NCBI GenBank assembly: GCA_026004395.1
Contig: BPJB01000001.1
Span: forward strand, 15,543-79,542
Reading direction: 5' to 3'
DNA from: Patescibacteria group bacterium
GTDB taxonomy: Bacteria > Patescibacteriota > Microgenomatia > Levybacterales > UBA12049
Length of the DNA stretch: 64,000 nucleotides
Shown piece by piece: positions 26,972 through 59,866 of the stretch (its first letter is position 1; each line of letters starts with the position of its first letter). Made by a program: the position numbers and the translations under genes. Under the pieces are notes generated by a model. The model had not been told where the DNA came from. It worked only from the letters and a program-made list of their open reading frames with translations, and did not search any database.

Positions 26972-27043
26972 TGGGCCTGGATGGGATCGAACCATCGACT
27001 TCCATTTTATAAGAATGGCACTCTACCGCTGAGTTACAGGCCC
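26972..27043 (-). tRNA. tRNA-Ile (anticodon UAU)
   Basis: Manual cloverleaf: GGGCCUG/CAGGCCC acceptor, D ACUC/GAGU, anticodon stem CCAUU/AAUGG with loop CUUAUAA, T arm GAUGG-UUCGAUC-CCAUC. No encoded CCA. Confidence 0.75.
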
Positions 27044-36080: not shown

Positions 36081-37052
36081 TTACATACCTTCCAGCTGCT
36101 CTTGGGTGAGGATATTCTCCTTTTTAAGAAATAGAAATTGCTCTTTTAGCTGTGCGCCTTCAATCATCTCCGGCCAATCAGTATTGATTGTAAACTTGAC
36201 ACCGTATTTTATAAATGTATGCAGAATGCGACGAAGTTCAGCAATGTTCTTCACTGCACGTGTTGCTAGGTTTGAAAGTGGACAGACCTCAAGTACAATA
36301 TTTCTCTTGACAATCTCTTTCATAAGTGAACTATCAGAGGCAGCATGAATACCATGTCCTATTCGATCAGGAGAGATATATTCAAGAGCTTCCCAGAGAT
36401 CATTGTTATTTCTAACTTCTCCAGTATGGACAGTAATTTTTAATCCTGCCTTGCGGGCTTTTTGAAAAAGATTTCTATAATCTTTGAAATTAAATCTAGG
36501 ATCTATAGGTCCAGCAACATCTATTCCCACTACTCCCCTCTTGTGATACTTTATGGCTTTCTCAACAATAATTGCATTTTGTTCATAAGAAAACTCGCGA
36601 GCAAGACTAAATATTAATCCAGCTGACAATTTGGGATATTCAAGTAGAGCTCTCTCCATTCCACGTAGCATAGCCATAATGACATGATCCAGATCAATAG
36701 TTCCACCATGATTATGTTTCATTGGGTTATTGCGAAGCTCAAGAAGAATAATATTGTTTGCTCTATAAGCTCCTCCCATAATCTGATGTGTTGCATGTTC
36801 AACAGCGTGTGTTCCGGATGAGAGCCGATCCAATAAAGGATGGTATATTTTCTCGAAGTACGTATTAAGTGGCATGGTGCGTTTAGATGAAAGGCGTATA
36901 AACTCTTTAAATTCATGATAATCACGTTTTGGAAGTTTAAATCCTTGATCATGAGCTATCTGCCAGTAGATAGATGGATGAATAGATGCTCCCAAATGAG
37001 CATGAAGTTCAGCCAGTGGAAAATTGGGAAATGATGAGCTATTTGAATCCAT
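36081..37052 (-). CDS. adenosine/AMP deaminase-family metallo-hydrolase
   Basis: HAHLGAS (HxH), ITVHTGE, EVCPLSN and TINTDWP motifs. The last differs from the canonical NTDDP. Confidence 0.78.
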   Translation of the reverse strand: MDSNSSSFPNFPLAELHAHLGASIHPSIYWQIAHDQGFKLPKRDYHEFKEFIRLSSKRTMPLNTYFEKIYHPLLDRLSSGTHAVEHATHQIMGGAYRANNIILLELRNNPMKHNHGGTIDLDHVIMAMLRGMERALLEYPKLSAGLIFSLAREFSYEQNAIIVEKAIKYHKRGVVGIDVAGPIDPRFNFKDYRNLFQKARKAGLKITVHTGEVRNNNDLWEALEYISPDRIGHGIHAASDSSLMKEIVKRNIVLEVCPLSNLATRAVKNIAELRRILHTFIKYGVKFTINTDWPEMIEGAQLKEQFLFLKKENILTQEQLEGM

Positions 37053-37114
37053 AATCCATTTTAAATACTATTGTCTCTTTTCGCAAGAAAACACCTTAAG
37101 TTATAATAAGTTGC

Positions 37115-38641
37115 ATGATTTATGTAGTTGATTTTGGATCTCAGACTGCGCATCTTATAAAGCGACGAATAAGAGATTTAGGAGCTATAACGAAATTTAT
37201 TACTCCAGATGAAATAATGGCTGCAATACAAAAAGAAAAACCCCATGGGATTATCCTCTCTGGTGGACCAGCCTCAGTCTATGACTCAAACTCCCCTACT
37301 CTTGGGAAGGAGATTTTCTCAATGAACATTCCTCTTCTTGCGATTTGTTATGGTATGCAGTTGATGATGCAGCTGTTGGGTGGGACTGTTGTCTCGGGGA
37401 AAAAAGAATATGGTCCTTCTGTTCTTGTACGCATCTCAAATAAAGGAAAGTTATTAAAAGGTGTTCCGCCTCGATCTACGGTTTGGATGAGTCATGGAGA
37501 TGAGGTAGTAGTACTTCCTCAAGGGTTTGAAACAATTGCATCAACAGATAATGTCCAATATGCTTGTGTAGCTGACCTAAAGAAAAAACTTTTTGGGATG
37601 CTTTTTCATCCTGAAGTTGAACATACAGAGTACGGAGAAGTTATACTAAAAAATTTTGTTGAGCTTTGTAATACTCCTCTTATTCAAAAGGAAATAGATA
37701 TTCAAGAATTAGAAAAAAGTATTCGTCGGGAAGTTGGAGAGGCATATGTGATTGGCGCGGTATCAGGCGGAGTGGATTCTACTGTAGCCGCAGCTCTTAC
37801 CGCGCGGGCAATAGGAAAAAAATTTGTGCCTTTTTATGTTGATAATGGTCTAATGCGCGAGGGAACAACTCAGCAAGTTAAAGCAATTTTTAAACACCTT
37901 GGTGTTTCAGTAGATATCATCGAGGTTGAGGAAGAGATGCTTGAGAGACTGAAAGGAATTGATGAACCTGAAGAAAAACGGAAGATAATTGGCAACTTTT
38001 ATATCGAACTTTTCGAAAGAGAAATGAAAAAGCTTAAAACAGCTGGAAAAGATGTTGAGTTTCTTCTTCAAGGGACAATCTACTCGGATGTGATTGAGAG
38101 CAAAGGAACTAAATATGCAAGTAAAATTAAGTCGCATCATAATGTTTTGGGACTTCCCAAAAAAATGAAATTAAAGTTGTTGGAGCCTTTAAGAAATTTT
38201 TATAAAGATGAGGTAAGAGAACTTGGTATCAAACTTGGGCTTCCTGATTCTTTTGTATACCAACAGCCCTTTCCCGGTCCTGGATACGCTATAAGGATTC
38301 GGGGTGAGGTGACAAAAGATAGACTCGAAAAAGAGCGAATTGCAGATAGAATTGTCCTTGAAGAATTAAAAAAAGCTGGTTTTTTGCAAAAAGTATTTAT
38401 TTCTTTTCCTGTTTTAACAGGTGCTTTTTCCACAGCAGTTAAAGGTGATGGAAGATTTTTTGGAGAAGTGATTGCACTTCGTGTTGTTGAGTCAAAAGAT
38501 GTAATGACTTCAAAATGGTCGCACCTACCCTACTCACTTTTACAAGTGATATCCAGTCGTATTGTCAATGAGGTCCCTGGTATTTCGCGGGTAGTGTATG
38601 ATATCACAACTAAACCTCCTGCCACGATGGAATGGGAGTAA
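37115..38641 (+). CDS. guaA: GMP synthase (glutamine-hydrolysing)
   Basis: GATase domain (ICYGMQ, HPE) and ATP-PPase domain (SGGVDSTV); 508 aa. Confidence 0.95.
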   Translation: MIYVVDFGSQTAHLIKRRIRDLGAITKFITPDEIMAAIQKEKPHGIILSGGPASVYDSNSPTLGKEIFSMNIPLLAICYGMQLMMQLLGGTVVSGKKEYGPSVLVRISNKGKLLKGVPPRSTVWMSHGDEVVVLPQGFETIASTDNVQYACVADLKKKLFGMLFHPEVEHTEYGEVILKNFVELCNTPLIQKEIDIQELEKSIRREVGEAYVIGAVSGGVDSTVAAALTARAIGKKFVPFYVDNGLMREGTTQQVKAIFKHLGVSVDIIEVEEEMLERLKGIDEPEEKRKIIGNFYIELFEREMKKLKTAGKDVEFLLQGTIYSDVIESKGTKYASKIKSHHNVLGLPKKMKLKLLEPLRNFYKDEVRELGIKLGLPDSFVYQQPFPGPGYAIRIRGEVTKDRLEKERIADRIVLEELKKAGFLQKVFISFPVLTGAFSTAVKGDGRFFGEVIALRVVESKDVMTSKWSHLPYSLLQVISSRIVNEVPGISRVVYDITTKPPATMEWE

Positions 38642-43629: not shown

Positions 43630-43704
43630 TCCGCGGTAGCTCAATGGTAGAGCAGGAAGCTGTTAACTTCAAGGTTCTAGGTTCGAGTCCTAGCCGCGGA
43701 GCCA
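43630..43704 (+). tRNA. tRNA-Asn (anticodon GUU), CCA encoded
   Basis: UCCGCGG/CCGCGGA acceptor, D arm GCUCAAUGGUAGAGC, anticodon loop CUGUUAA, T arm CUAGG-UUCGAGU-CCUAG, then GCCA. Confidence 0.85.
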
Positions 43705-44205
43705 AATTGTATGTTCAAAGGAAGCCGCCGACCCCCGCAAGGCGAAGTGGATTTTGATTGTTTCGAGTGAGTAAAGAATTTTAGAAAGAAACCTTTTGGC
43801 AAAAAAGTTTCTTTCAATTCCTTTTGATTTTTTGAGTCTGACAAGAAAAAATTTTAGAGTGTTTGAAATGTTTTCAAAGGAAAATTTAGAGCATACCTCT
43901 GGTAGTTCGTATCCAGCCCGGCACCCCGATTGAAAATCGTTATTTAAACGAAAAACAAGATTTTCGATATAGTTTTTATCAATCGAAATGCGCTCTAAAT
44001 TTTCCAGACAAAAATTTTCCAATCTTTCAGCGGAAATTTGTTTTACCGGGCAAGTTTGCCAATCCTGTCTTAGGGTTGAAGTACAGCGATAGTAATAATA
44101 TCTTTTTAATTTTTTGCCAGTTCTTTTATTGGTAAAACAAGATGTCATTTTAGAACTGCAATTTTCGCATTGGACCAATCCACCGAACAGAAAATTTCTG
44201 TACAT
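43690..44205 (-). pseudogene. large serine recombinase, C-terminal half only (zinc beta-ribbon + coiled coil + tail); catalytic domain absent
   Basis: FLFGGLVQCENCSSKMTSCFTNKRTGKKLKRYYYYRC…CPV matches the recombinase zinc-ribbon domain. No resolvase N-terminus. Its 3' end overlaps the tRNA-Asn 3' end. Confidence 0.65.
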
Positions 44206-44270
44206 AACCTAAGCGAAGAAGATTTAGTAAAGCTCACACACAGAACTGCTTTGCGCATACCACCATTTGT

Positions 44271-44630
44271 TTAGCTTGCATCGTCTATAGTTCTGGCGCG
44301 AAAGTTGATTATTTTTTTGAGTAGGCTAGGGGGGATCGGTTTGTCAGCAGTAAACTGCAGGGTACCTTTTGAACTCCGATACTTAACCAACTTTGGTCCG
44401 ACCGCATTGATCATTTCGTCGGAGGCTGGATATATGCTCATATGTTTGCTATGGGCAGCATAGTATATCAAAATCTTTTTGTGGTATTTGAAAGCGGGTA
44501 TACCATAGCTTATAATTTCCTCTACTTCTGGAAGCTGAGATTTTACTAAATTCCGAATCTTGATTAGCTCATCGCGATGTGACTCTGGCAAATCCTGTAA
44601 GTAGCCATCAACTGTTTGATGTTTTTTCAT
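44271..44630 (-). CDS. DUF1801 (YdhG-like) domain protein
   Basis: 119 aa; …ISYGIPAFKYHKKILIYYAAHSKHMSIYP… is typical of DUF1801. Confidence 0.7.
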   Translation of the reverse strand: MKKHQTVDGYLQDLPESHRDELIKIRNLVKSQLPEVEEIISYGIPAFKYHKKILIYYAAHSKHMSIYPASDEMINAVGPKLVKYRSSKGTLQFTADKPIPPSLLKKIINFRARTIDDAS

Positions 44631-44668
44631 AACCCAATTATATCAAATAGTAGCGATGCTGTATAGAT

Positions 44669-44812
44669 ATGACTAAAGAGGAGGTACTAGGTGGTACAGT
44701 GCACGAGCTGCCCACCGACCTGCGCAAAGCCTTGGCTGCCAATAAGGCGGTCTTAGCTAAATGGCAGAGCCTTACACCCCTGGCCCGCAACGAGTGGATT
44801 TGAGCTTTTAGT
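44669..44812 (+). pseudogene. YdeI/OmpD-associated-family N-terminal fragment inside a GC-rich (~58% GC) foreign segment
   Basis: 47-aa ORF MTKEEVLGGTVHELPTDLRKALAANKAVLAKWQSLTPLARNEWI* carrying the YdeI motif; it stops where YdeI proteins continue. Local GC is far above the window mean. Confidence 0.45.
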
Positions 44813-44990
44813 CAAACGAAATTAAGGAGTTCCTTGTTGTTGCGCGCGAATGGGCAGGGTGGGTCAAACGCAACTGTATTGGCGGCGCATTTCGCAAAGC
44901 GAAATACGAAATTCGGCGGCGGAAAAGCGAGGGTGGGCAAAAATTCCTTCCCCCAACCCCCTTCCTTTTTGCCCGCCCGAGCGTAATTTA

Positions 44991-45311
44991 TCAAAAATCC
45001 GGTTGCTGATTTTCCTTGGAAAAAGTTCGGATTTCGTTCAGAGTTCGGAGCCAGAGTTGACGAGAGGCTAAATTGGCTATCTTGTCAAAGGGGTTTAGAA
45101 AGTGGTATCGGACTTTTTTACCTTCTAACTCTAAGTTCTGAAGTGTTATTTTCAAAAGTAGTCGTTTTTCGTGAACTTCAGAACTCAAAAACAAATCATA
45201 AGCCTGATTAGCAAGTGTTAAAAGGTAGTTTGCTGTTAAATAATAGTTGTCTTCAGCTTTCTTAAGATTCGCTAGTTTAGTAAAATTTTTCATTAAAAAA
45301 TGCTTTGTCAA
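44991..45311 (-). pseudogene. serine-recombinase C-terminal-tail-like remnant ORF (repeat copy 1)
   Basis: …KRLLLKITLQNLELEGKKVRYHFLNPFDKIANLASRQLW… This sequence recurs in ORF 52865..53092 and in two further loci. Confidence 0.45.
45050..45186. repeat. ~135-bp repeat family, copy 1 (3' end of a recombinase-like gene)
   Basis: Read directly. Related copies at 52986..53108, 57682..57812 and a degenerate copy at 59931..59973. Confidence 0.8.
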
Positions 45312-45773: not shown

Positions 45774-47564
45774 TTATACCTCTTTTGTAACCAAAACTTC
45801 TTCTCCTAACATATCAATTATTTTGACTGCCACTTTGGTTGGCTTTTCACTTATTTCAAGCTCATATTCGCCTTTTACTAAATCGCTCTGTCTTTCGGGA
45901 ACATCCGAGAAACCAATCTTGAATACTTCACCGTCGTAATCCGTATCAACCAGCACTACATCGATCATCGACCTGAAATCTGGAATTTTCTTCTGCAAGA
46001 GTCCTGGTTCAAGCTCCAAGCGCTTAATGATCGTAGGGGAAATAAAGGCTAAAATTTTAATCTTTACTTTGTCTTTGCCTATCCGTTTAATTTCCACTTC
46101 TGCTTTTGATGGTTCGTAACTCACAAAGTTTTTGTCTTTCAGGTCAAAGACAATAAACTGACGCATGCGTTTCTTGCTTCTGGTATCTTTATAGGGTTGC
46201 TTTTTATTCCATTCCTCAACCCAACCGTCTACCTTTGTCTCCCTGCCCAGTGAGATGACCACTACATCTCTATCCTCGTCTGGGCGCTTATTAAGCTCAT
46301 CAACGATTAGCTGCAGGTCAAGTAGCGTTAAGGGGTGATTGAAATCTATAATTTTGACCAGCTCGCCACTATCCCGCAGACCGTCAAAGAAAGTGTCTGT
46401 TTTAGTTTTAGTAATTCCGTATTGCTGGATAGCCAATTCTTTAGCTTCAGTCTTCAAGATTCTTAAATCGTAGTTATTAACCTTGTAAATTGCGAAAGTG
46501 GGGTATTTTGTTTCTTTTTGATCTTTGATGATTTTTTGTAATCTTTTACTTGTTACTTGAATTGCTCCCTTATTAACATCAACCCCAATCCACCGCCTAC
46601 CCAATTTATGTGCTACCGCACAGGTCGTTCCCGAACCAACAAAACAGTCTAAAACTAAGTCGTTTTCGTCAGATGACCCTTTAATAACTTTCTCTAATAA
46701 AGCCTCTGGTTTTTGTGTAGCATAATTAGTTCTTTCTATGGCTTGAGAATTAATGATTGCAATTTCCCAAACATCTTCTGGAAGCCTTCCTAATGGATTA
46801 ACCTTCACAATTCTACCAAAAGAGGTTGTGCCAGATTCTGCTTGTTTTATTGTGCCTTCTTTGTAAGGAGTCCTTACTAAATCGATGTTAAATTTATAAC
46901 TGCTTTTATTCTTACAATAGAGGAGAATTGTATCATGCTTATGTAAATATTCCTTTTTAACCGAGCCTGATGGGTCTTTATAATGCCATACAATCTCATT
47001 TATAAGATTTTCTTCTCCAAATATTTCATCCATTAAAACTTTAATGTAATGAACCATCCTGTAATCCAAGTGGATATAAATACTGCCTGTTTCTGCCAGT
47101 AATTCCTTCAGCAAAATTAACCGCTCATACATAAACTGGAAGTATTCATCCCGTTTCCAAATATCTTCATACATCGTTTGTTGAATTATCGATTCACTGT
47201 CTTCTTCGATCCTGCCCAAATCTTTTAAGCCCCGCAGTTCAACTTTTCTCATGTAGTCTTTGTTGCTGGCAAACGGAGGATCGATATAAATCAGGTCAAC
47301 CTTGCCTCTGAAGCCAAGTTCCAAAAGTGTTGCTAAGACTTCTTTATTATCTCCATGAAACAGAAGATTGTGCCAATTTTTTTCAAGCTCGCTGAATTTA
47401 GGGGTTTCTGGGAATTTATCTTCCTTCTGGGGGTCAAAGACTTCAATTAGTTGTGTAGGGAAGCCTGTGACATATTCTAACGGGTGTTTATTAACCCAAT
47501 GGAGTAGAGGTCTGCCTTTTGGTGTTTCAACTTTTATTTTTTTGTTTGATTTATCATCTGTCAT
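45774..47564 (-). CDS. mod: Type III restriction-modification N6-adenine DNA methyltransferase (Mod)
   Basis: Motif IV IYIDPPF, motif [12 protein letters not shown]; 596 aa; start overlaps the res stop by 4 nt. Confidence 0.85.
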
Positions 47565-47566
47565 AT

Positions 47567-50152
47567 TTATTTTTTGTGTTGGTAAATCCAGTTAAAAACT
47601 GGCATAACTTTACCAAATACCGACTCTCCTTCCTCTAAAAGCAGGAGTTCATACTTTATTTTATCAGGATTTATCGCTTCCAGCTCTTGCATCTCTTTTT
47701 CAGCTTCCTTAATCCTGTATTTTGGCGCTTTTACCTCCACGATTAAAGATCTACCATCTTTCTTGCGAATTAAAAAGTCGGGGGTATAACTGTGCCAGTC
47801 TCCCTTGTCGTCTTTGTATTCAAAGATTAAATCGGTTTTAGCGGGATCGTTAATTGCGCCTGTGTAATAAATGTCCTCAACATTATCGGGGTCTTCACCA
47901 AGTTTAATAAGCATACTCTCAAAAAACTCTCGTTCATACTCTGAGTCAAAATTGTAAGGGTCGTAATGAAAGCCAAAGAGCGGTAGTTGTCCAGCCTTTG
48001 CTTTGTAGTCCTTCAGCTCCAGCACATATTTCTTCAGAGAGGTTTTGTTAACCCTAATGTGGGTCACATAGGAGGTTTTGCCGTCAACAGTTTCTTCTTC
48101 AAACCCTTTCTGCTTGATAAGAGCCAGTGCTTCTTCGACTGTTTCATTGACCACTTTGTAGCGCATGGTTTGTTTTTCTATTTGGGTGCGGATAAGTTCC
48201 AGTTCAAACGCCCCAATTTCTCCGTCTGGGTATAAGTTTTGGAGCAGTTTATAAGTTTTTAGCGAGTCTAAGCGGTAAGCATGAGCCAAAACTACGGCAG
48301 CTTGGAACAGGTCGATTTTCCTGTCTGTTACCGCTCCCTTTTTAGTTCCCACTTCAACCAGCACCCCTTTTCTCTGGGCTTTGGACATGGAATAAATGGT
48401 CTTTTCAAAGGATTTGACCGTTTCTTTGCCTGGTTTATCGATTTTTAGACACTCTTGCGCTTTCAAGTCTTCTGGGACTATCTTTTGGATGAGCTTTTTG
48501 ATAAGCAAAGGCGGCAGTTCAATCTTTCTAAGAGTTACTTTAACTGTTACCGTGTCCGTAGAAACCCTGTTGAGATCATCCAACCCCTCACCAAAGGTTT
48601 CTTGCAACTGCCGATCAAGAATGGAGACATTGTCTTTTGAGAGGTAAATCTTGGCTTTTTTGGTGTTGCCATTGACTTGTCTTAAACATCGACTGGCAGC
48701 TTGCAAAACAAAGTTATTGCTTGAATTAAGTTTCCTTGCCAGAGCGGTAGCGAATAAAGATAAGCAGTTCCACCCTTCTGTGCCTTTGTTGACGAGCAGG
48801 AAGACTCGGTAGGGCAGTTTGGGATCGTTAATGCGGTTGTCAAAAAGGTCTTTAATCTCATCAGTTGACTTGTTATGCACTGGCAGTACAACTGATGGGT
48901 CAATTTTTAATGAGATGAGAGTTTGCTCAACAATAGGCTTAGCTTTTTCTAGATCATCGACCTGAGGGAAGTAGATAGCCAGCTTGGCATATTCGCCGCT
49001 CTCAATTTGAACATCTTTGTATTCTTGAAAAAAGTCTTTAACTACATCAACAATGAAATCATGATCAGATACATCGGAATAGGCAATGATGTTGCCTCTT
49101 ACTTCTTTTAAGATTCCATCCTCAATACCTTGTGATAGTCCATACCAATAAATAACATCTCGCAGAAGCTGTCTTTGGTAATAGGGTGTGCCTGTGGTGT
49201 TAACTACCGCTAAAAGATTGGTTTTCTCGGCAATGTAGTTGATTGTCTGTCTGACCCTCTTCAGGTCGCTTGCCAGCTCCTGTCCGTAGGTGTGATGGGC
49301 TTCATCTGAGAAGACTGCCAAGTGAGGGAGCGAGGTAATGGTTTGCAACCTTAAATTAGCCACCAGCTCTTTTGCTTCTTCAATTCCCAGCCTCAACTGC
49401 CCTGACAGGAAAGATTTGGGGATACTGTTCTTTTGAAGTCTTATTTTTTCAGTGTTGGTGACAATAACATTAAAGGAGCTGCCTCGGATAACGGGAATGT
49501 CTTTCTCGCCATCCCTGGTGTAGGTGAATTTAACATTGGTGATAAAAGATTTATAGAAACGAGGGGGAAGTATTTTGTCGTATGGTGTGTCAGAGATTTC
49601 TCTCAAAGCACCCAGTATGGTCTTGCCAGGTGCAAATACCAGGGCATTTTTGATAAATATGCCATCTTCTTCCTGATATTCCAAAGCCATCGCAAACTCG
49701 GTAGCGATGATGGAAGCTATAAGGATTGTCTTACCTGCTCCCATTGCCAATGCCAGGATATAACTGGGGTATGAGAGAGTGAGTGTTTCTCTTAATGCTT
49801 CAAGCCTGTATTTCTTAACAAATACATCGTTGGTTCTGACTTTATCAATAATGAGATCTAATCCACCTCCTGCTAATAAGAGATCTGTCAAATCTTCCTC
49901 TGACAAGCAGATGCCGAGTGCCTTTAATAGTTCTTTTCCTTGAAAGTATTCCTTGTAAAGATTGAAGATGTTTGGTGTGTTTTTGACTAAGCGTAAATAC
50001 CAGTAAGTTTCTAACGCCTCAAATTGTGCCTTTCTTAGAAAGTCATTCTGGTTATGCTGGAAAATGGTGGCAATAGCAGGATAAGAGGAAGGATAATCTT
50101 GCTGTCTCCAATTAGCAACATCTAATTTCAATTTTTGATAAAGATTGATCAT
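47567..50152 (-). CDS. res: Type III restriction enzyme Res subunit (SF2 helicase + PD-(D/E)xK nuclease)
   Basis: Walker [13 protein letters not shown] box FSDEAHH, C-terminal PDFLI…VEVK nuclease motif; 861 aa. Confidence 0.85.
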
Positions 50153-50340
50153 ACCTTTTGTTTTTGTATAAACTTATCAAGTTCTGCTTTATTGATACGA
50201 TATTGTTTCCCAATTTTGAAAGCCTGGAGCTTTCTTGCTTGTACCCAACGATACACAGTAAGATATGCAACCTTTAGTATGTCTGCTACTTCTCTAATTG
50301 TATAAAATTCCTCTACTTCTCTTTTATCCATATTTAACAT
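50149..50340 (-). CDS. small HTH DNA-binding protein (excisionase/AlpA-like fold); putative controller of the R-M operon
   Basis: 63 aa; YTIREVADILKVAYLTVYRWV HTH; stop overlaps the res start by 4 nt. Confidence 0.55.
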   Translation of the reverse strand: MLNMDKREVEEFYTIREVADILKVAYLTVYRWVQARKLQAFKIGKQYRINKAELDKFIQKQKV

Positions 50341-52864: not shown

Positions 52865-53092
52865 TTACAATACAGCAAAGGCAGGCTTGGGTTGGCTAAT
52901 TCCTAAGTTTTCAAACGCAATTTTAAGGTCGTTTAGGCTTATATTAAACTCTAATCTATCGTTGCAGAATAAGTCTTTTAGGGGGAGCCAGAGTTGACGA
53001 GAGGCTAAATTGAATATATTGTCAAAGGGATTTATCCAGTTAAATCGGACTTTTTTACCTTTTAGTTCCAAGTTCTGAAGTGTTAAATTCAA
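52865..53092 (-). pseudogene. serine-recombinase C-terminal-tail-like remnant (repeat copy 2)
   Basis: MNLTLQNLELKGKKVRFNWINPFDNIFNLASRQLW… DNA repeat spans 52986..53108. Confidence 0.45.
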
Positions 53093-53128
53093 AAGTAGCC
53101 GTTTTTCATACTTGTTCTTAGTAATCCT

Positions 53129-53596
53129 TCAATTTATTAATTTACCTAGAGTTTTTAGCACTTTTGTTTCTCTATTTTCTTCCTTTGGCAAGTAACCAAT
53201 TAAACCGCTTTCTATGGCTTGATTACAAGCTATTGGAGCTTTTCTGCTTATTTTTAGAATTTCCGAACCAGGATTTCCTTGGAGGATTCTCATTTGATCA
53301 TGCTCGCTCATTCTTTTTGAGGAAGGAAGTATATTTTGGTATGATTTACAAAACAAATAGCAGTAAAGCCAATTTCTCTCCAGATTGCTTCTAATTCGTC
53401 TACCCTCAAAATACTTGGTAAGCATACTTGGTAAGCACAAACCTTTTTTTATGTCTTTCAAGAGAGATTTTTCATTCTCATCCATTGGTTCTCTTTCTAG
53501 GAACATGTCGTTTAGTACCACTCTTCCTGATGATTTAAGAACCCGATAAATTTCTTCCATAACTGAGTTTGTCATAAGAGTGAACATAACTCTCAC
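53129..53596 (-). pseudogene. class I SAM-dependent methyltransferase, C-terminal fragment
   Basis: Begins …MEEIYRVLKSSGRVVLNDMF, resembling methyltransferase motif III/post-II. No SAM-binding GxGxG N-terminus. Confidence 0.4.
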
Positions 53597-53854: not shown

Positions 53855-55678
53855 TTATATAATCTCTATCATAAAATCTTTTGCCTCGGGAAAGGGAGCA
53901 TATCGTGGTGACTGCAATGAGGACATTAACTCAATTGTTGGCAATAATGGGAATTTGTTTCTAATTCTTCGTCCTCTGCTTTCTTGTTGTCTACGTTTTG
54001 TTACATGTTCCCATGTGTTTCTTCCATCAATCATTCTTTCTTCAAATACATGCACCAATGGTTTAATAAGAACAGGATTATCAAAACCACCAGAAATCAT
54101 TGATATACCCGTAGCATAACTTGGCATAAAGGCAGAAACTACTGCCTGTATTTCTGGATAATTGTTTTTTATGTGATTGAATGTAAGTGAAAACATGCTA
54201 CTACTTGTATTTCCAGGAGCGCCAGGGCGACTATAAAGTCTAGTTAGGTCATAGCAATAACAAGGGTTATAGCCTTGTATCAATAAAACATTTTGTTTGT
54301 ACGGACGATCAATCTTCTCCAATGCAAGAACTGAAAATGGTAAATCCTCCCCTACTATGTACAATCCGAAAGCAATATCAGCTCGGGGAGTATGAATATA
54401 ATGTAAATCTTGATGGAATTGCTTTGCAAATTCTGGATTAATTTCTCGGAATGCAAGTGGCACTAGTCCGGCTGTCGCTGTTACACCTTCTTCCTGTACT
54501 GCAAAGATTGCGTTTCCTCTTTTTTGTATCACCCATCCAGGTTCAGCAAACATTCCTGTACGGGTCAATATTCTTTCAACTGGAAGTGAGCTATTTTGCA
54601 ATCTTTGTTTGATGATTAGGTATTGTTCTTCAATCGTTGCAGCAAGTATCTTAGGATTTATCCTGAACTGTTGGATAAATTGTGCATCAAGATTCAAGAT
54701 ATTTCGCCAGTCAACATAAGCGCTATGATCCCGTAAGTAATTATTAAGTTGTGAGCCGTTAACAAAAACATCGGAAACTTCATAGGTTGTAAGGCGGAAA
54801 AGCGTTTGATATTTTAAATCTTGTGGATCACATAAAATATTATTTTTTTGGATATATTCGTCTACTGCAGCTGCAACCTGTTCTCGGGCATGTGACATTA
54901 GTGCATCTTTTGGCCAATTTACTAATCGGAACTTTGGAACCATAATGATTTCTCCCTTTGCTAAGGCGGTAGCTAATTCTCTACGCCTTCTTTCAATCTG
55001 TCCTTGTCTTACTACCTCTCTCAACACTCCAAAACGTATAGCTCCATGTTTCATTGTGGTAATTGCATGATCTGCCTTTTTCTTCATATTTACATTGTTA
55101 ACAACGTTAATTCCTTGAAATAGTATTCTTGGCCCGTTAACAGGGATTTGAGTGGGATTGTTTTCTTCTATAGCCAATTGAGTTTCTTGCTTAGCAAAGT
55201 CTTTTATCCACTGAAGCACTTTTCCTAATACCATAGAATCTCCTTCTAATTGTTGAATATCAGTGGTGAGTTGATCCTCGTATCTAACAGAATCAGCAAT
55301 AATATCTTGGTCAGTGCCATCTTGTAATCTTACATGTATTCGTAGTTCATTACCGTCACCTTTCTTAAATCTCATTCGTCCAAGTATTTCTTCTACCGTT
55401 TTCCCTCTTGCCTGTTTATTTTTTCTTCCAGCAGGCATTGGGATATGTTCTCTGCGCATAAGCCATGCCACCGCCCGAAGCACTTCATAAAATCGTACTG
55501 GAGTAAAACCTAAATCTCGGATCTGCTCAAATACATCTCGTAATTCTGGTTCTGTTAATCCATATGTGGTGAGTGATATATTAAATCTTCTCAATTGATC
55601 GAGCTTGGCTGATTTATCAAGTCTTCCAAAACTTTCACGAATTGGTTGATGAATAATTGGTGCTTCTTGTTTGCTCAT
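53855..55678 (-). CDS. large hypothetical protein (607 aa), no confidently recognisable domain
   Basis: ORF track; divergent from the adk/Ham1 pair. The C-terminal half has a Cys-containing segment (GYNPCYCYDLTRLYSRPGAPGNTSS). Confidence 0.5.
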   Translation of the reverse strand: MSKQEAPIIHQPIRESFGRLDKSAKLDQLRRFNISLTTYGLTEPELRDVFEQIRDLGFTPVRFYEVLRAVAWLMRREHIPMPAGRKNKQARGKTVEEILGRMRFKKGDGNELRIHVRLQDGTDQDIIADSVRYEDQLTTDIQQLEGDSMVLGKVLQWIKDFAKQETQLAIEENNPTQIPVNGPRILFQGINVVNNVNMKKKADHAITTMKHGAIRFGVLREVVRQGQIERRRRELATALAKGEIIMVPKFRLVNWPKDALMSHAREQVAAAVDEYIQKNNILCDPQDLKYQTLFRLTTYEVSDVFVNGSQLNNYLRDHSAYVDWRNILNLDAQFIQQFRINPKILAATIEEQYLIIKQRLQNSSLPVERILTRTGMFAEPGWVIQKRGNAIFAVQEEGVTATAGLVPLAFREINPEFAKQFHQDLHYIHTPRADIAFGLYIVGEDLPFSVLALEKIDRPYKQNVLLIQGYNPCYCYDLTRLYSRPGAPGNTSSSMFSLTFNHIKNNYPEIQAVVSAFMPSYATGISMISGGFDNPVLIKPLVHVFEERMIDGRNTWEHVTKRRQQESRGRRIRNKFPLLPTIELMSSLQSPRYAPFPEAKDFMIEII

Positions 55679-55770
55679 AAAAACACTTCAAACCTAAGCT
55701 GAAGTGTGGTATAATTATAGGATAACAAGGTGTAAAAATCAATTTTAACTAGACTCATGTTTCGTAAACT

Positions 55771-56388
55771 ATGAGGTATATAGAAAGATATAGACCAAAA
55801 GAAGGAGAAGGACATAATAAGATACTTGTTATAACTGGCGTTCCCGGATCAGGAAAAGATTTTCTTTTGTCGGAAGCAGTAAAACAAGGTATAATCCCTT
55901 CTTCAGTTAGGATGTTCAGCTTCGGAGAAGAATTATTTGCTTATTTAAAAACAATCCATCCACAGATACAGATAAGAGACGACGTTCGAACATTATTAAC
56001 TCAAGATGATGTTTGGCAAGGGGTAATTGGAGTAATAGACAAATTAATACAAGCACAACCAGCAATACTTAATACCCATGTTGTTTATCGGCAAAGAGAA
56101 AGCCTTATTACAAATCCCAATGTTGATAAGAGAATGCACCCCGCAGGTTATTTATTCGTATGGAGTGAACCTAATCAAATAGCAGAATGGCGAGCACGCG
56201 ACATATCGAGGGGGAGACCGCCTGAATCAATAGATGACATCGCATTGCATCAAGATATTGCATTGGAAGTTGTATCTGTGGTGGCAAGACATACAGGTGC
56301 ATGTCTCAAAACTGTTTGGAATCGAACTGATAATGTTGCAGATAATTTAGCTCTAATACAGGAACGAGCAAGAGAACTCACCCCTTAA
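55771..56388 (+). CDS. archaeal-type adenylate kinase (AdkA-like P-loop nucleotide kinase)
   Basis: ILVITGVPGSGKDF P-loop. Alignable along its length to archaeal AdkA (…FSFGEELF…, …NTH…, …IALHQD…). Confidence 0.65.
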   Translation: MRYIERYRPKEGEGHNKILVITGVPGSGKDFLLSEAVKQGIIPSSVRMFSFGEELFAYLKTIHPQIQIRDDVRTLLTQDDVWQGVIGVIDKLIQAQPAILNTHVVYRQRESLITNPNVDKRMHPAGYLFVWSEPNQIAEWRARDISRGRPPESIDDIALHQDIALEVVSVVARHTGACLKTVWNRTDNVADNLALIQERARELTP

Positions 56389-56418
56389 TTTCCCACCATT
56401 TTTCAGTATAATATTACA

Positions 56419-56976
56419 ATGAAGAAAATTTATTTTGTTACTACAAATCAGTATAAGTTCGAAAAATTCACTCAAGCGATTAGCATTCCAGGTATTGAAA
56501 TTGAACAATTATCAGAAGAAACACCGGAAATACAAGCACCTAATAACCGTCAAATTGCAGAATTCTCGGCCTGGTTTACTGCTCAGAAAATTAATCTTCC
56601 TGTTATAACAGAAGATGTTGGCTTGTACATACAAACTTTAAGAGGTTTCCCCGGTCCATACCTTAATCAGATTGAAAAATGGATAGAGACAGATGGTTTC
56701 TTGCAGCTTCTACTTAACAAAAAAGATCGATCAGCATATTGGGAATACGCAATTTCCTACTGTGAACCTAGACAAACTCCTAAAACATTTTATACACATC
56801 AAAAGGGAAGCATAGCAAAAGAGGCAAAAGGAAACAGCGGTTGGTATATGGATAAAATTTTTATTCCAGAAGGACAAGTAAAAACTATTTCAGAATTATT
56901 AGATAACAGAGAGTATGTTAGAAATGATGACCATTATCTGCAATTAAAAGAATATTTATTAAAACTGGGAAAATAA
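56419..56976 (+). CDS. Ham1/ITPA-family non-canonical purine NTP pyrophosphatase (eukaryote/archaea-like)
   Basis: YFVTTNQYKFEKF, ITEDVGLYIQTLRGFPGPY, DKSAYW, GWYMDKIFIPEGQVKTISEL. These track human ITPA/Ham1 more closely than bacterial RdgB. Confidence 0.78.
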   Translation: MKKIYFVTTNQYKFEKFTQAISIPGIEIEQLSEETPEIQAPNNRQIAEFSAWFTAQKINLPVITEDVGLYIQTLRGFPGPYLNQIEKWIETDGFLQLLLNKKDRSAYWEYAISYCEPRQTPKTFYTHQKGSIAKEAKGNSGWYMDKIFIPEGQVKTISELLDNREYVRNDDHYLQLKEYLLKLGK

Positions 56977-57113
56977 TCTTTCCTACTTCCCTACGTGTCA
57001 TATTACGATACATTGTATAGAGAGGTTATGTTTTTGTTTTAGATATTCGGCTGGTGTCTGATAACCCGACTGTCTTAATCTTACCTTGAGGTTATAGTTT
57101 ATCAATTAATCAG

Positions 57114-57272
57114 TTAGTTTCTCTTTAAGGTTCTTGACATCACCAAAGAGGTAGCATCTCTGAAGACCTTGGCTTTTATCTTACCGTTGAATCTCTCAAC
57201 CATACCATTTGTCCCCGCCTGCGTCCTTCCGAATCGGAGGACTTCGAGGTGGGCAGGCAGGGGTGTCTGAAT
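57114..57272 (-). pseudogene. DDE (rve) transposase C-terminal remnant
   Basis: Minus-strand translation …LRFGRTQAGTNGMVERFNGKIKAKVFRDATSLVMSRTLKRN*. No upstream body. Confidence 0.5.
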
Positions 57273-57681
57273 TTAATAGTTTCGTGTTTTATCTTTTCTT
57301 TCTGGCAGAGTTTATCAAAGGGATGAGTCTTCTTTGTTTTTTATTCTTGGGTAAGAAATTGTGTCAACCAAGAAACTCCAAACTTACGAGCTAAAACACT
57401 TATGGGTAGCAAGCCTTGACTGAATCTCCTTCCTTATGAGATAGTTAGCTCTGGCATTCTGGTGTAATCTCTGCAACATAGTTGTTAAGACATTATATCC
57501 TTAACAACGTATCGTAATCATACAGTTATTTATATTTTAAAATAATTTTTTATACAGTATCTTAATAAATAAAATATAGTGGAATCAGAGGTGGGATAAT
57601 TTATGCGGTAGCATACATTCTCAAATCAGGGAGATGTAAATATGCTCATTTTGCTGTTGTATAATAGTTCTAACGCTGTTT

Positions 57682-57812
57682 ACGATGTGGAGCCAGGCTT
57701 AACAAGAGGCTAAATTGGCTATCTTGTCAAAAGGATTTATCCAGTCATATCGGGCTATTTTGCCCTTTATCTATAAGTTCTGAAGTGTCATCTTCAAAAG
57801 TAGCCGTTTTTC
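57682..57812. repeat. ~135-bp repeat family, copy 3 (no associated ORF)
   Basis: gccaggcttaacaagaggctaaattggctatcttgtcaaaagg…aagttctgaagtgtcatcttcaaaagtagccgtttttcgtgg. Confidence 0.75.
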
Positions 57813-58030
57813 GTGGACTTTAAGAAATCTCCAAGAGTTTCACTGTGTTTAAAATCAGGTTTTCAGTTATTTTTTTTAGTTTGAGAGTACTTTGGATAAA
57901 TTTAATTAATTTTCAATTCAATATTCTCTTTCTAAAATCAGACAAAAGTTTTTAAGATTGAATGATGAGATCTAGGTAAAGTAATAGCGCTATAATAACT
58001 ACCTTTTGTTATATAATATTATTTAATAGT

Positions 58031-58726
58031 ATGTATGAAAGAAAAAGGATGGATAATAAATTATTTTCATCCCCTTTTGCAAATAAAGAAGACTTATGGA
58101 AAGAAGGATTAGATAATGTTCTTAAGAGATATTTATCTTTTCCTGAGAATAAGATAATAGAGACGGATTTTGCTTATAATGTAGTTTTTAATAATCCCCG
58201 AGCTCTGGATATTGTAAATGTAGAGAATGATGAGAGATATTTAATCTACCTATCAACAGAGTCAGATAAAACTTCATATGACATGCTTAGAACATCCAAG
58301 ATACCTCTTTTAGGAGATAGACAAGAGACATATGGATTAACTGTTATCCGTATTCCTCTGCATACAAAAGGGCTTGGAAGTATAGTTTATCCTGAACAAT
58401 ATTTTACAGGGCAAAGATATTTAGGAGCTTTAGAAATTATGCGTGAATTAGGAAAATATATAGGTCAGATATATAACAGAACAAAACATGTCCCTAAAAC
58501 TCTTGACTTAAAAAAATTTGCGATTGTAGGTGGTGAGACAGGATTAATTCGTATGGTTCCCCCATATGAATTATCAAGTGATTTTAATGAATTAAATTTT
58601 GTTAGTAGTCTTGCTCAAAGTTTAAAAGAATGCGATCCAGTAAATAGCGATAAGCACGATATTCATGTTCAGGTTTTTTACAGGAGTTTGAAAGATGTTA
58701 TAAACAAAGATGTAAAATCTGAATAG
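58031..58726 (+). CDS. hypothetical protein (first gene of a two-gene operon)
   Basis: ORF track; 10-nt gap to the next ORF. Confidence 0.4.
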   Translation: MYERKRMDNKLFSSPFANKEDLWKEGLDNVLKRYLSFPENKIIETDFAYNVVFNNPRALDIVNVENDERYLIYLSTESDKTSYDMLRTSKIPLLGDRQETYGLTVIRIPLHTKGLGSIVYPEQYFTGQRYLGALEIMRELGKYIGQIYNRTKHVPKTLDLKKFAIVGGETGLIRMVPPYELSSDFNELNFVSSLAQSLKECDPVNSDKHDIHVQVFYRSLKDVINKDVKSE

Positions 58727-58735
58727 AATATTTAT

Positions 58736-59866
58736 TTGCATTACTGTTATATGTTAGAACTTTCGCGAAGTATTAATAATGAAAAAATTAAAACATATTA
58801 TGACAATGAGAGCAATCAGCATCCGGTCAATACACTTAATCATTGGATTAAAGCTTTTAACAATTCTAGAAGGTCTGCGGTAAGTGTTGATGCATTAAGC
58901 TTCAGTAATAATTACGATCCTAATCACGCAATTGAAGAATTTTATTATCATCTGAGCAGCAGGCAAGGATTAGAGCTAATTATACCCCGATATCCAAATA
59001 GAAGAGAATTATTAAGTTTTTCTATGCTTGATGATTCTGATTTGTTAATAAGAGGCGGAAGTGCTCATGGCGTATTCTTTGTACAGGGCAATACTCAGGA
59101 GGTTAGAAGTGGCAAAATAAAGAAGTCTAAAATTGATTTAGCAGTTAAGCAATTTTCTGATCCTCAGAAGGCAATGCGTGAGTTTCTAATTACTTTAGTG
59201 GTTAGACAGCGCATGATAGATTTTGTGAAATACCTAAAGAATTATGGAGAAGTATCAATCAATGGTTGTCTTTTTACACCTATACAACCAATAGCTCTTT
59301 TTGTTGATAAAAAACAGGGATATCTCTTGACGCGAGCAAACAGAATGATTACATCCTTAGACCAAGAGCCATGGTCGCAATATTGGTCAGCAACAGATGA
59401 AGATAAAAAGCGAATACAGAATAGATTTGCTAAAATTTCTATGCTCCTTGCCAATTTACATAGTAATGGTATTTTTCATGGAGATGCACAGATTAAAAAT
59501 TTTGTAGTTTCACCGCATGGATTTGTAGGAGCTATTGACTGGGAAGCTGCTTATTTGGCACCTGTGGATTTTGTGGAGATTCCTTCAGATATATTAATAG
59601 GGAAGGCAACATCAGACCTACAAATATTTTATAAATCTATTTCCGAAGATGATAAAAATTTGTCAAGATTAGAGTTAATAACGGGTAGTCAAGAACAAAA
59701 GTGGGAGTTGTTTAGTAATCTAGTTATCGATCCATACATGACTCAATGGCTGGAAATCAGTGAAAAACACAACTCTCATGGCAGCAAGAGTGAAGCGTTA
59801 TTTAATTGGGAGAATTTTTATGAACAACTACAAAAAGAACTCAAGCGATATATTACAGCTAAGTAA
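58736..59866 (+). CDS. protein-kinase-like fold protein (Kdo/WaaP/APH-like)
   Basis: G-rich loop IRGGSAHGVFFV, Lys in DLAVKQF, catalytic-loop-like LHSNGIFHGDAQIKNFVV, and AIDWE. Confidence 0.5.
   Translation: MHYCYMLELSRSINNEKIKTYYDNESNQHPVNTLNHWIKAFNNSRRSAVSVDALSFSNNYDPNHAIEEFYYHLSSRQGLELIIPRYPNRRELLSFSMLDDSDLLIRGGSAHGVFFVQGNTQEVRSGKIKKSKIDLAVKQFSDPQKAMREFLITLVVRQRMIDFVKYLKNYGEVSINGCLFTPIQPIALFVDKKQGYLLTRANRMITSLDQEPWSQYWSATDEDKKRIQNRFAKISMLLANLHSNGIFHGDAQIKNFVVSPHGFVGAIDWEAAYLAPVDFVEIPSDILIGKATSDLQIFYKSISEDDKNLSRLELITGSQEQKWELFSNLVIDPYMTQWLEISEKHNSHGSKSEALFNWENFYEQLQKELKRYITAK

Follow-up and report, generated by a model that had tools for sequence, protein, structure and literature searches.

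We analysed a 64,000-nucleotide (nt) stretch of DNA from a Patescibacteria group bacterium (contig BPJB01000001.1, positions 15,543 to 79,542), hereafter called the window, and in it a trio of genes encoding proteins of 607, 205 and 185 amino acids (aa). The three genes are a real, conserved and uncharacterised module of ultra-small organisms, the bacteria of the candidate phyla radiation (CPR) and the DPANN archaea. The 607-aa protein belongs to the family of Mom, the DNA-modifying enzyme of phage Mu, the 205-aa protein resembles the archaeal adenylate kinase AdkA, and the 185-aa protein is a Ham1-like pyrophosphatase. Our tentative explanation is that the trio serves chemistry on a purine nucleotide, most likely an adenine nucleotide, around a Mom-type GNAT acyl- or aminoacyltransferase.

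The three open reading frames (ORFs) lie at the positions given by the initial annotation and are arranged as it described. The kinase and Ham1 genes point in the same direction with 30 nt between them, and the 607-aa gene diverges from them across a spacer of 92 nt. The features of the module are the following (window coordinates).

53855..55678, minus strand: Mom-like gene, 607 aa; pseudokinase, helical domain and Mom-type GNAT domain; core gene of the module
54929..55678, minus strand: N-terminal cytidylate-kinase-fold domain, aa 1-250 (approximate borders); basic, isoelectric point (pI) 9.8, poorly conserved, Walker A motif lost, hence a pseudokinase
54539..54928, minus strand: helical domain, aa 251-380 (approximate borders), delimited from family alignments, secondary structure of the model and the start points of short forms
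53858..54538, minus strand: Mom-type GNAT domain, aa 381-607, delimited from the Pfam match, hhalign against Mu Mom and invariant columns
55679..55770, no strand: divergent intergenic spacer, 92 nt, with one sigma-70-like match per strand (10/12 each)
55771..56388, plus strand: AdkA-like P-loop nucleoside monophosphate (NMP) kinase, 205 aa, from the NF003122 match (61.7 bits) and the archaeal AdkA matches in the PDB
56419..56976, plus strand: Ham1/ITPase-like pyrophosphatase of non-canonical purine nucleoside triphosphates (NTPs), 185 aa, archaeal/eukaryotic type, from Pfam, NCBIfam and PDB comparison

The sigma-70-like matches in the spacer are consensus matches only, and their count is not above that in shuffled sequence.

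Conservation of the module in CPR bacteria and DPANN archaea

Scans with the family alignments recovered 15 loci in 185,579 species genomes and 24 loci in metagenomes. All ORFs in these loci were compared by iterative profile search, and the loci were collapsed at 90% identity to 39 groups, 30 of which were informative. The initial annotation had raised the question of co-occurrence in other genomes, and the genes do keep company there: an AdkA-like gene, a Ham1-like gene or both lie at most 1.5 kb from the Mom-like gene in 29 of the 30 informative groups, both being present in 18. The functional link on nucleotides that had been proposed between the kinase and the Ham1 protein is thereby borne out, and it extends to the 607-aa gene as the core of the module.

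Among the CPR bacteria the carriers are Saccharibacteria, Levybacteria-like genomes and several metagenome-assembled genomes (MAGs) labelled "Gammaproteobacteria" or "Vitreimonas" whose Mom-like proteins nevertheless fall in with those of CPR bacteria, and among the DPANN archaea they are Micrarchaeota, Nanoarchaeota and Nanohaloarchaea. Four carriers (L001, L004, L005 and L008) are titled "uncultured Gammaproteobacteria" or "Vitreimonas sp.". These labels are probably taxonomic mislabels, because the Mom-like proteins of the four are 42-64% identical to the CPR protein and the genes have the same arrangement. The archaeal flavour noted in the initial annotation was found in the AdkA-like kinase, in the archaeal-type Ham1 protein and in the distribution of the module over CPR bacteria and DPANN archaea. 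Since the whole module occurs in both groups, its spread between domains is plausible.

Gene order varies between lineages. In the clade of the window the Mom-like gene is transcribed away from the kinase and Ham1 genes. The DPANN loci and some CPR loci have all three genes in one direction, as Mom-Adk-Ham, Adk-Mom-Ham or Mom-Ham-Adk, and in Levybacteria-like loci the Ham1 gene is inverted between the Mom-like and kinase genes. Three natural fusion proteins join Ham1 to Mom (L033, of 563 aa, P0241 and P0247), and two distinct Ham1 clades occupy the same position in the module. No further gene family recurred generally near the module in the neighbour analysis across loci.

The copies in other genomes lie in ordinary chromosomal neighbourhoods. 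No relatives of the module were found in the viral contigs of IMG/VR, the phages of INPHARED or the plasmids of PLSDB, which argues against a phage or plasmid origin of the Mom-like subfamily. PADLOC gave no match for any of the three window proteins.

The 607-aa protein has a Mom-type GNAT domain

The 607-aa protein had been described as an orphan with no recognisable domain, a description that no longer holds. It passes the Pfam model PF25680 (Mom) with 29.5 bits against a gathering threshold of 27.1, over aa 408-515 and for the first half of the model only. Its homologs carry the same precomputed PF25680 match, and the protein also matches phrog_1384, "Mom-like DNA modification protein". 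A word-indexed collection contains at least 83 clusters of homologs. When 1.84 billion representatives were searched exhaustively with the family profile, 297 proteins were returned at E<=1e-3, 97 of them at E<=1e-30, so that the family is a small one. A hypothetical protein of the Candidatus Dojkabacteria MAG KatS3mg083 matches the 607-aa protein with 100% identity (Dojkabacteria, formerly WS6, are candidate-phyla bacteria).

An AlphaFold2 model made from an alignment of 67 sequences was confident (pLDDT 93, pTM 0.90). Its top Foldseek match was Mu Mom (8bv8, E 6e-6). The profile of the Mom-like family had no match among PDB sequences, and the comparison of folds was used instead.

The protein consists of a cytidylate-kinase-fold pseudokinase (about aa 1-250), a helical domain (about aa 251-380) and a Mom-type GNAT domain (about aa 381-607). 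The N-terminal domain has the Cmk-like fold (PF02224). The family of the window lacks the Walker A P-loop and the DxGxxYR CMP-binding motif, both of which are present in the sister proteins P0322, P0353 and P0336. The assignment as a pseudokinase follows from the alignment of the Walker A motif of these Cytidylate_kin domains with a degenerate segment of the window protein, where GGTATGKSE/GPAGSGKTT of the sisters stands opposite TTYGL--TEPE. An origin of the pseudokinase by duplication of the AdkA-like gene next to it was considered and rejected, as the two showed no significant similarity (hhalign probability 6%). The pI is 9.8 for the N-terminal domain and 9.2 for the whole protein.

DPANN forms do not have the N-terminal kinase-fold domain. 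Short forms begin at about position 205-250 of the profile, and the helical domain, with invariant residues D284, D287, Q291, F294, R295, Q352 and P366, is kept in the short forms of DPANN.

Comparison with phage Mu Mom

Mu Mom moves glycine from Gly-tRNA(Gly) to the N6 of adenine in double-stranded DNA (dsDNA), after which the product rearranges on the base (PMC13219725, 2026). Its residues R111, S124 and R151 are essential, mutations of H58, Y59, W48, Y159 and W181 drastically cut activity, and D149A greatly reduces activity. A helix-turn-helix-like insertion (residues 175-209) is needed for DNA binding. D149 and R151 surround the flipped-out dA in an AlphaFold 3 model of Mu Mom (all PMC13219725).

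Like Mu Mom, the proteins of the Mom-like family carry the counterparts of H58/Y59, R111 and S124. In the hhalign alignment, which is weak by itself, these align with H426/Y427, R480 and S493, all of which are invariant in the 67 sequences. The conserved set of the GNAT domain is H426/Y427, R480, N490 and S493. The Mom-like family thus shares the Mom fold and half of the Mom active-site signature. Mu D149 and R151, in contrast, are not kept. Their positions are taken by invariant P519 and Y521 in an alignment extended by hand at the sequence level only, the Pfam match ending before this region. Because the two residues that surround the flipped-out dA are replaced, the family may act on a different acceptor.

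A conserved segment, DG..WEHxTKRR, resembles DGEWYHE...KRGG of Mu, and the model has mostly strands there. Its basic patch EHxTKRR (557-563, with T560, R562 and R563) is conserved and lies roughly at the position of the Mu insertion.

Unlike Mu Mom, the protein is about 2.6 times larger, with an extra N-terminal pseudokinase and a conserved helical domain, and its identity to Mom is about 14-17%. The genes are on CPR and DPANN chromosomes rather than in phages, have no com-like regulator, and are almost always partnered with nucleotide enzymes. To our knowledge, Mom has so far been known as a stand-alone phage enzyme.

The AdkA-like kinase

The initial annotation had assigned the 205-aa protein to archaeal AdkA and not to bacterial Adk, and the alignments agree. 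The protein aligned end to end with archaeal AdkA structures (1ki9, 6pjw, 3h86 and 1kht) at E 1.7e-6 in a single-sequence search of PDB sequences, and the motifs VITGVPGSGK, FSFGE, NTH and IALHQD are visible in the alignment. A profile of 23 members of the AdkA-like family improved this to E 6e-27 and added the Sulfolobus enzyme 1nks. No bacterial Adk was among the PDB matches of the protein. Its Pfam match is to the generic AAA_17 only, and its sole NCBIfam match is to archaeal adenylate kinase, NF003122, with 61.7 bits, which does not reach the equivalog cut-off of 155.

G23, G28, K29 and R141 are invariant in the family alignment, and H103 (of the NTH motif) and R149 are nearly so. From the conserved P-loop, NTH motif and lid arginines, activity of the protein as an NMP kinase is probable. 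In a collection of 5.8 billion proteins it has relatives in only 22 clusters, which are essentially confined to loci of the module. The AdkA-like family is therefore a small dedicated clade and not the general adenylate kinase of CPR bacteria. Like archaeal AdkA (NF003122; PDB 1ki9, 1nks and 3h86), it has full-length homology with the P-loop, the NTH/DTH motif and the lid arginines. It differs from AdkA in its score below the equivalog level and in forming a separate clade confined to the module.

The Ham1-like pyrophosphatase

The 185-aa protein is a member of Pfam Ham1p_like (88.1 bits, cut-off 22.5). It is of the archaeal/eukaryotic type, as had been noted from its motifs, with the archaeal proteins PH1917 (Pyrococcus, 95 bits) and MJ0226 (Methanocaldococcus, 92 bits) as its closest relatives. 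The scores were 69 bits with KomB (8zsg), 51 bits with human ITPA, and 23-27 bits with E. coli RdgB. It stays below every NCBIfam equivalog cut-off (best 136.6 bits against 203).

The catalytic motifs are intact, and N10, K13, E37 and D66 are invariant in the Ham1 alignment. Like PH1917, MJ0226 and human ITPA, the protein has the N-terminal TxNxxK motif and the PEIQ, EDxGL and GFPGPY motifs. The motifs on the nucleobase side differ, with GWYMDK for GFGYDP and HY for SHR of ITPA. In other loci its place is taken by a second, divergent Ham1 clade of the ATDGG type. Another CPR genome has a stand-alone Ham1 gene, 67% identical to the window copy, whose neighbours are repair and hydrolase genes. 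The Ham1 type is thus generic to CPR bacteria; specific to the module are the Mom-like and AdkA-like families.

Sister families and accessory partners

In distant relatives of about 850 aa (P0322, P0336 and P0353) the GNAT domain is joined to a genuine Cytidylate_kin domain (Pfam) whose Walker A motif is intact. From this fusion of an intact-P-loop cytidylate kinase to the GNAT, kinase activity looks like an ancestral requirement that is supplied in the window by the separate AdkA-like gene.

The most divergent Mom-like clade (419 aa; L035:3990-8176, L036 and L037) has two radical SAM/SPASM genes and the gene of a nucleotidase-like HAD hydrolase at its flanks. The hydrolase is weakly similar to nucleotidases of the YjjG type and replaces the kinase and Ham1. 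A radical SAM gene of 335 aa lies directly upstream of the AdkA-like gene and in the same direction at L024:4046-5053, L004:3528-4535 and L005:5691-6698; at L023:2272-3279 it lies between the Mom-like and kinase genes. Viperin was the best NCBIfam match of the 335-aa protein, but we did not assign it to that family, the score being 24.8 bits against a cut-off of 180; no PDB sequence matched it.

One sub-clade has a protein of about 375 aa beside the Mom-like gene. It has no Pfam match and carries a Cys/His/Asp-like motif, GEPLGQC...GPHV...DLTxDQ. In the 850-aa kinase-GNAT sister family (P0322) this domain is part of the polypeptide, joined on at the N-terminus. The protein is encoded at the following places.

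L045:8857-9984
L019:3683-4798
L020:4078-5211
L028:6576-7730

Genomic context of the window copy

The trio had been placed inside an island, and the surroundings support this. The island begins at a tRNA-Asn gene (43630-43704), which abuts a fragment of a serine-recombinase Zn-ribbon; the tRNA gene and the recombinase fragments are found at 43.6-44.2 kb. Three direct repeats of 132 nt, 83% identical, are remnants of the 3' end of a recombinase gene and split the island into cassettes. The trio sits between copies 2 and 3.

45047-45178, no strand: direct repeat copy 1
52984..53115, no strand: direct repeat copy 2, 3' fragment of a recombinase gene, left border of the trio cassette
57689..57820, no strand: direct repeat copy 3, right border of the trio cassette

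The division of the island by these recombinase remnants (window 43630-45311, 52865-53115 and 57689-57820) suggests serial integrations at a single site. Pfam confirmed neither of two other annotations near the trio: an ORF taken as a methyltransferase fragment (53129..53596) had only a non-significant Pfam match (Methyltransf_31, E 0.16), and ORFs taken as a transposase remnant (56998..57479) had no Pfam match.

The cassette before the trio (window 45774-50340) holds a type III-like restriction-modification (R-M) system. It encodes an N6_N4 DNA methylase of 596 aa and a ResIII helicase, 861 aa long, that carries a TnsA-like endonuclease domain at its C-terminus; the start of the helicase is overlapped by an HTH_17 protein. 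Just past repeat copy 3 (window 58031-59866, plus strand) are genes for a 231-aa protein without family match and a 376-aa APH/Kdo/Bud32-like kinase; this pair was not found beside the module in other genomes. The R-M genes (ResIII and Mod), a CAP-like protein, the 231-aa ORF and the Bud32/APH-like kinase were considered as members of the module and rejected, none being conserved with it elsewhere.

Further upstream, 17 kb from the module, the window encodes adenosine deaminase and GMP synthase (36081-38641), enzymes of purine salvage and interconversion. The deaminase would make inosine compounds of the kind policed by Ham1 enzymes. A tRNA-Ile gene with the anticodon UAU lies at window 26971-27043 (minus strand). 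Such a tRNA is uncommon in bacteria, in which AUA is usually decoded by a lysidine-modified CAU tRNA.

A possible pathway of nucleotide modification

The explanation we favour, tentatively, is the one given at the outset, in which a Mom-type enzyme acts on a purine nucleotide with the help of the other two. A free nucleotide is the favoured acceptor because the Mu residues that contact adenine embedded in DNA are lost and because nucleotide enzymes recur beside the gene. Ham1 would turn a purine (d)NTP into the (d)NMP and so lower the canonical triphosphate. The Mom-like enzyme would then acylate or aminoacylate the exocyclic amine of the base. The dedicated AdkA-like kinase would re-phosphorylate the modified NMP, which the housekeeping kinase might refuse. 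Finally, the cell would build the modified nucleotide into its own DNA or RNA or employ it as a small-molecule product. Where versions of the module include radical SAM, Cys/His/Asp-motif or HAD genes, these would further modify the product or trim it. The donor may be an aminoacyl-tRNA or an acyl-CoA, and the acceptor adenine or cytosine, ribo or deoxy.

This order of action was drawn by analogy with two phage systems. In phage T4, the dCTPase gp56 acts before the dCMP hydroxymethylase gp42, which is followed by the dNMP kinase gp1. PurZ/MazZ/DatZ is the 2-aminoadenine cluster, in which the base is modified before replication. Like both systems, the trio unites three enzyme roles, those of an NTP pyrophosphatase, a base modifier and an NMP kinase. 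Unlike in those systems, the context is cellular, the target is probably the exocyclic amine of a purine, and all three families are unrelated to the phage ones; the likeness is one of logic only.

Several observations weigh against our explanation. The N-terminal kinase-fold domain is poorly conserved, has no conserved NMP-binding residues and is missing from DPANN forms. A precise nucleotide pocket in this domain is therefore unlikely, and it looks more like a nucleic-acid- or tRNA-binding domain or a scaffold. The basic pI values (9.8 and 9.2) and the TKRR patch roughly at the place of Mu's DNA-binding insertion would fit a nucleic-acid substrate or donor. AMP is abundant, so that only deoxy or rare nucleotides would call for a pyrophosphatase to supply them. 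The trio is also incomplete in places: three Saccharibacteria lineages have no kinase, one lineage has no Ham1, and L028 has neither. A nearly identical type of Ham1 also occurs as a stand-alone gene, and the order of the steps is itself inferred.

Alternative explanations

The main rival is that the Mom-like enzyme momylates the cell's own DNA (or RNA) after replication, the two other genes serving pool hygiene. Turnover of the modified nucleic acid would release N6-modified (d)AMP, Ham1 would destroy the modified (d)NTP, and the kinase would feed or balance the salvage loop. CPR and DPANN organisms rely on nucleotide salvage, and N6-modified purine NTPs are classical substrates of Ham1 enzymes. 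That the best structural match is the dsDNA-modifying Mu Mom, that the catalytic H/Y, R and S are kept, that the protein is basic with T560, R562 and R563 conserved roughly where Mu has its essential DNA-binding insertion, and that the window module adjoins a type III-like R-M cassette all fit this account. Sanitising, however, needs no dedicated kinase, yet a kinase is part of the polypeptide in the sister family or encoded alongside at most loci, and D149 and R151 of Mu Mom are not conserved. The neighbour analysis across loci found no conserved nuclease or restriction partner beside the module, and we know of no case in which DNA methyltransferases or phage Mom genes travel with pool sanitisers. 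We regard post-replicative momylation as rather doubtful. A modification of bases in tRNA or rRNA, in the manner of TmcA/NAT10 (an ac4C-forming GNAT with a P-loop ATPase) or Elp3 (a cm5U/ncm5U-forming GNAT with a radical SAM domain) and only loosely coupled to the nucleotide enzymes, is quite unlikely. Like TmcA/NAT10, and with regard to Cmk, the 607-aa protein joins a domain of P-loop fold to a GNAT aimed at the exocyclic amine of a nucleobase; several loci have radical SAM genes alongside the Mom-like gene, translation genes occur in the chromosomal neighbourhoods, and the N-terminal domain is basic. But the P-loop is lost in the window family, which leaves no ATPase motor, the fold is of the NMP-kinase and not the helicase type, and the GNAT is of the Mom type. 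With 15 loci across 185,579 species genomes, the distribution of the module is sparse and patchy, unlike that of a core RNA modification, and this account leaves unexplained the tight, reshuffled linkage and the fusions with Ham1 and an NMP kinase.

The initial annotation had suggested anti-phage defence or counter-defence, which would act through nucleotide signalling or manipulation of the pool as in Kongming, where the HAM1-like KomB senses dITP made with a phage dNMP kinase (bioRxiv 10.1101/2024.12.20.629578; PMC13454610). A kinase, a base-modifying enzyme and a HAM1-like protein echo the parts of Kongming (same sources), base-modified purine nucleotides would be common to both, Ham1 matches KomB with 69 bits, and the window copy is in an island beside an R-M system. 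Unlike Kongming (KomA deaminase, HAM1-like KomB, SIR2 protein KomC), the trio has no KomA, no KomC, no effector and no match in PADLOC, and its Ham1 has a better match in the archaeal housekeeping ITPases (95 bits) than in KomB. No SIR2, TIR, nuclease or membrane-protein effector and no deaminase is conserved nearby, the neighbourhoods in other genomes are housekeeping ones, and the family is absent from the viral contigs, phages and plasmids searched (IMG/VR, INPHARED and PLSDB). The results thus went against the suggestion, and a defence role is very improbable. That the genes form no functional unit at all, a housekeeping ITPase and kinase having come to lie beside an unrelated gene by chance, would be in keeping with the 67%-identical stand-alone Ham1 and with the plausible housekeeping roles of both enzymes. 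Co-occurrence in 29 of 30 informative loci, in two domains and with rearranged order, together with three independent fusion proteins, effectively refutes chance adjacency. The near confinement of the AdkA-like family to module loci speaks against it as well.

Significance

The literature on Mom, momylation and this gene combination yielded work on Mu Mom, notes on phage fusions of Mom with a restriction endonuclease, and the Kongming papers; a description of the module was not found in it. The Mom family and a logic like that of phage pathways are known. The architecture, the partners and the cellular setting in CPR bacteria and DPANN archaea are new.

A more specific version of our explanation, which we think unlikely as it stands, is a cellular, non-viral hypermodification of purines before replication. 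The Mom-type enzyme would aminoacylate a free (deoxy)adenine nucleotide by way of aminoacyl-tRNA, and the pyrophosphatase and the kinase would direct what it makes into the DNA (or RNA) of the CPR and DPANN carriers. If true, this would be the first cellular, non-viral pathway of pre-replicative purine hypermodification, and CPR and DPANN episymbionts would have a chemically distinct genome, swapped between domains as a three-gene cassette.

The module reveals a cellular branch of the Mom family that, in both CPR bacteria and DPANN archaea, is joined to a kinase fold and tied to an NMP kinase and a nucleotide pyrophosphatase. Its natural fusions and variants are material for learning how Mom-type enzymes choose donor and acceptor. 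It points to an undescribed modified nucleotide or modified genome in organisms with a minimal, salvage-dependent nucleotide metabolism.

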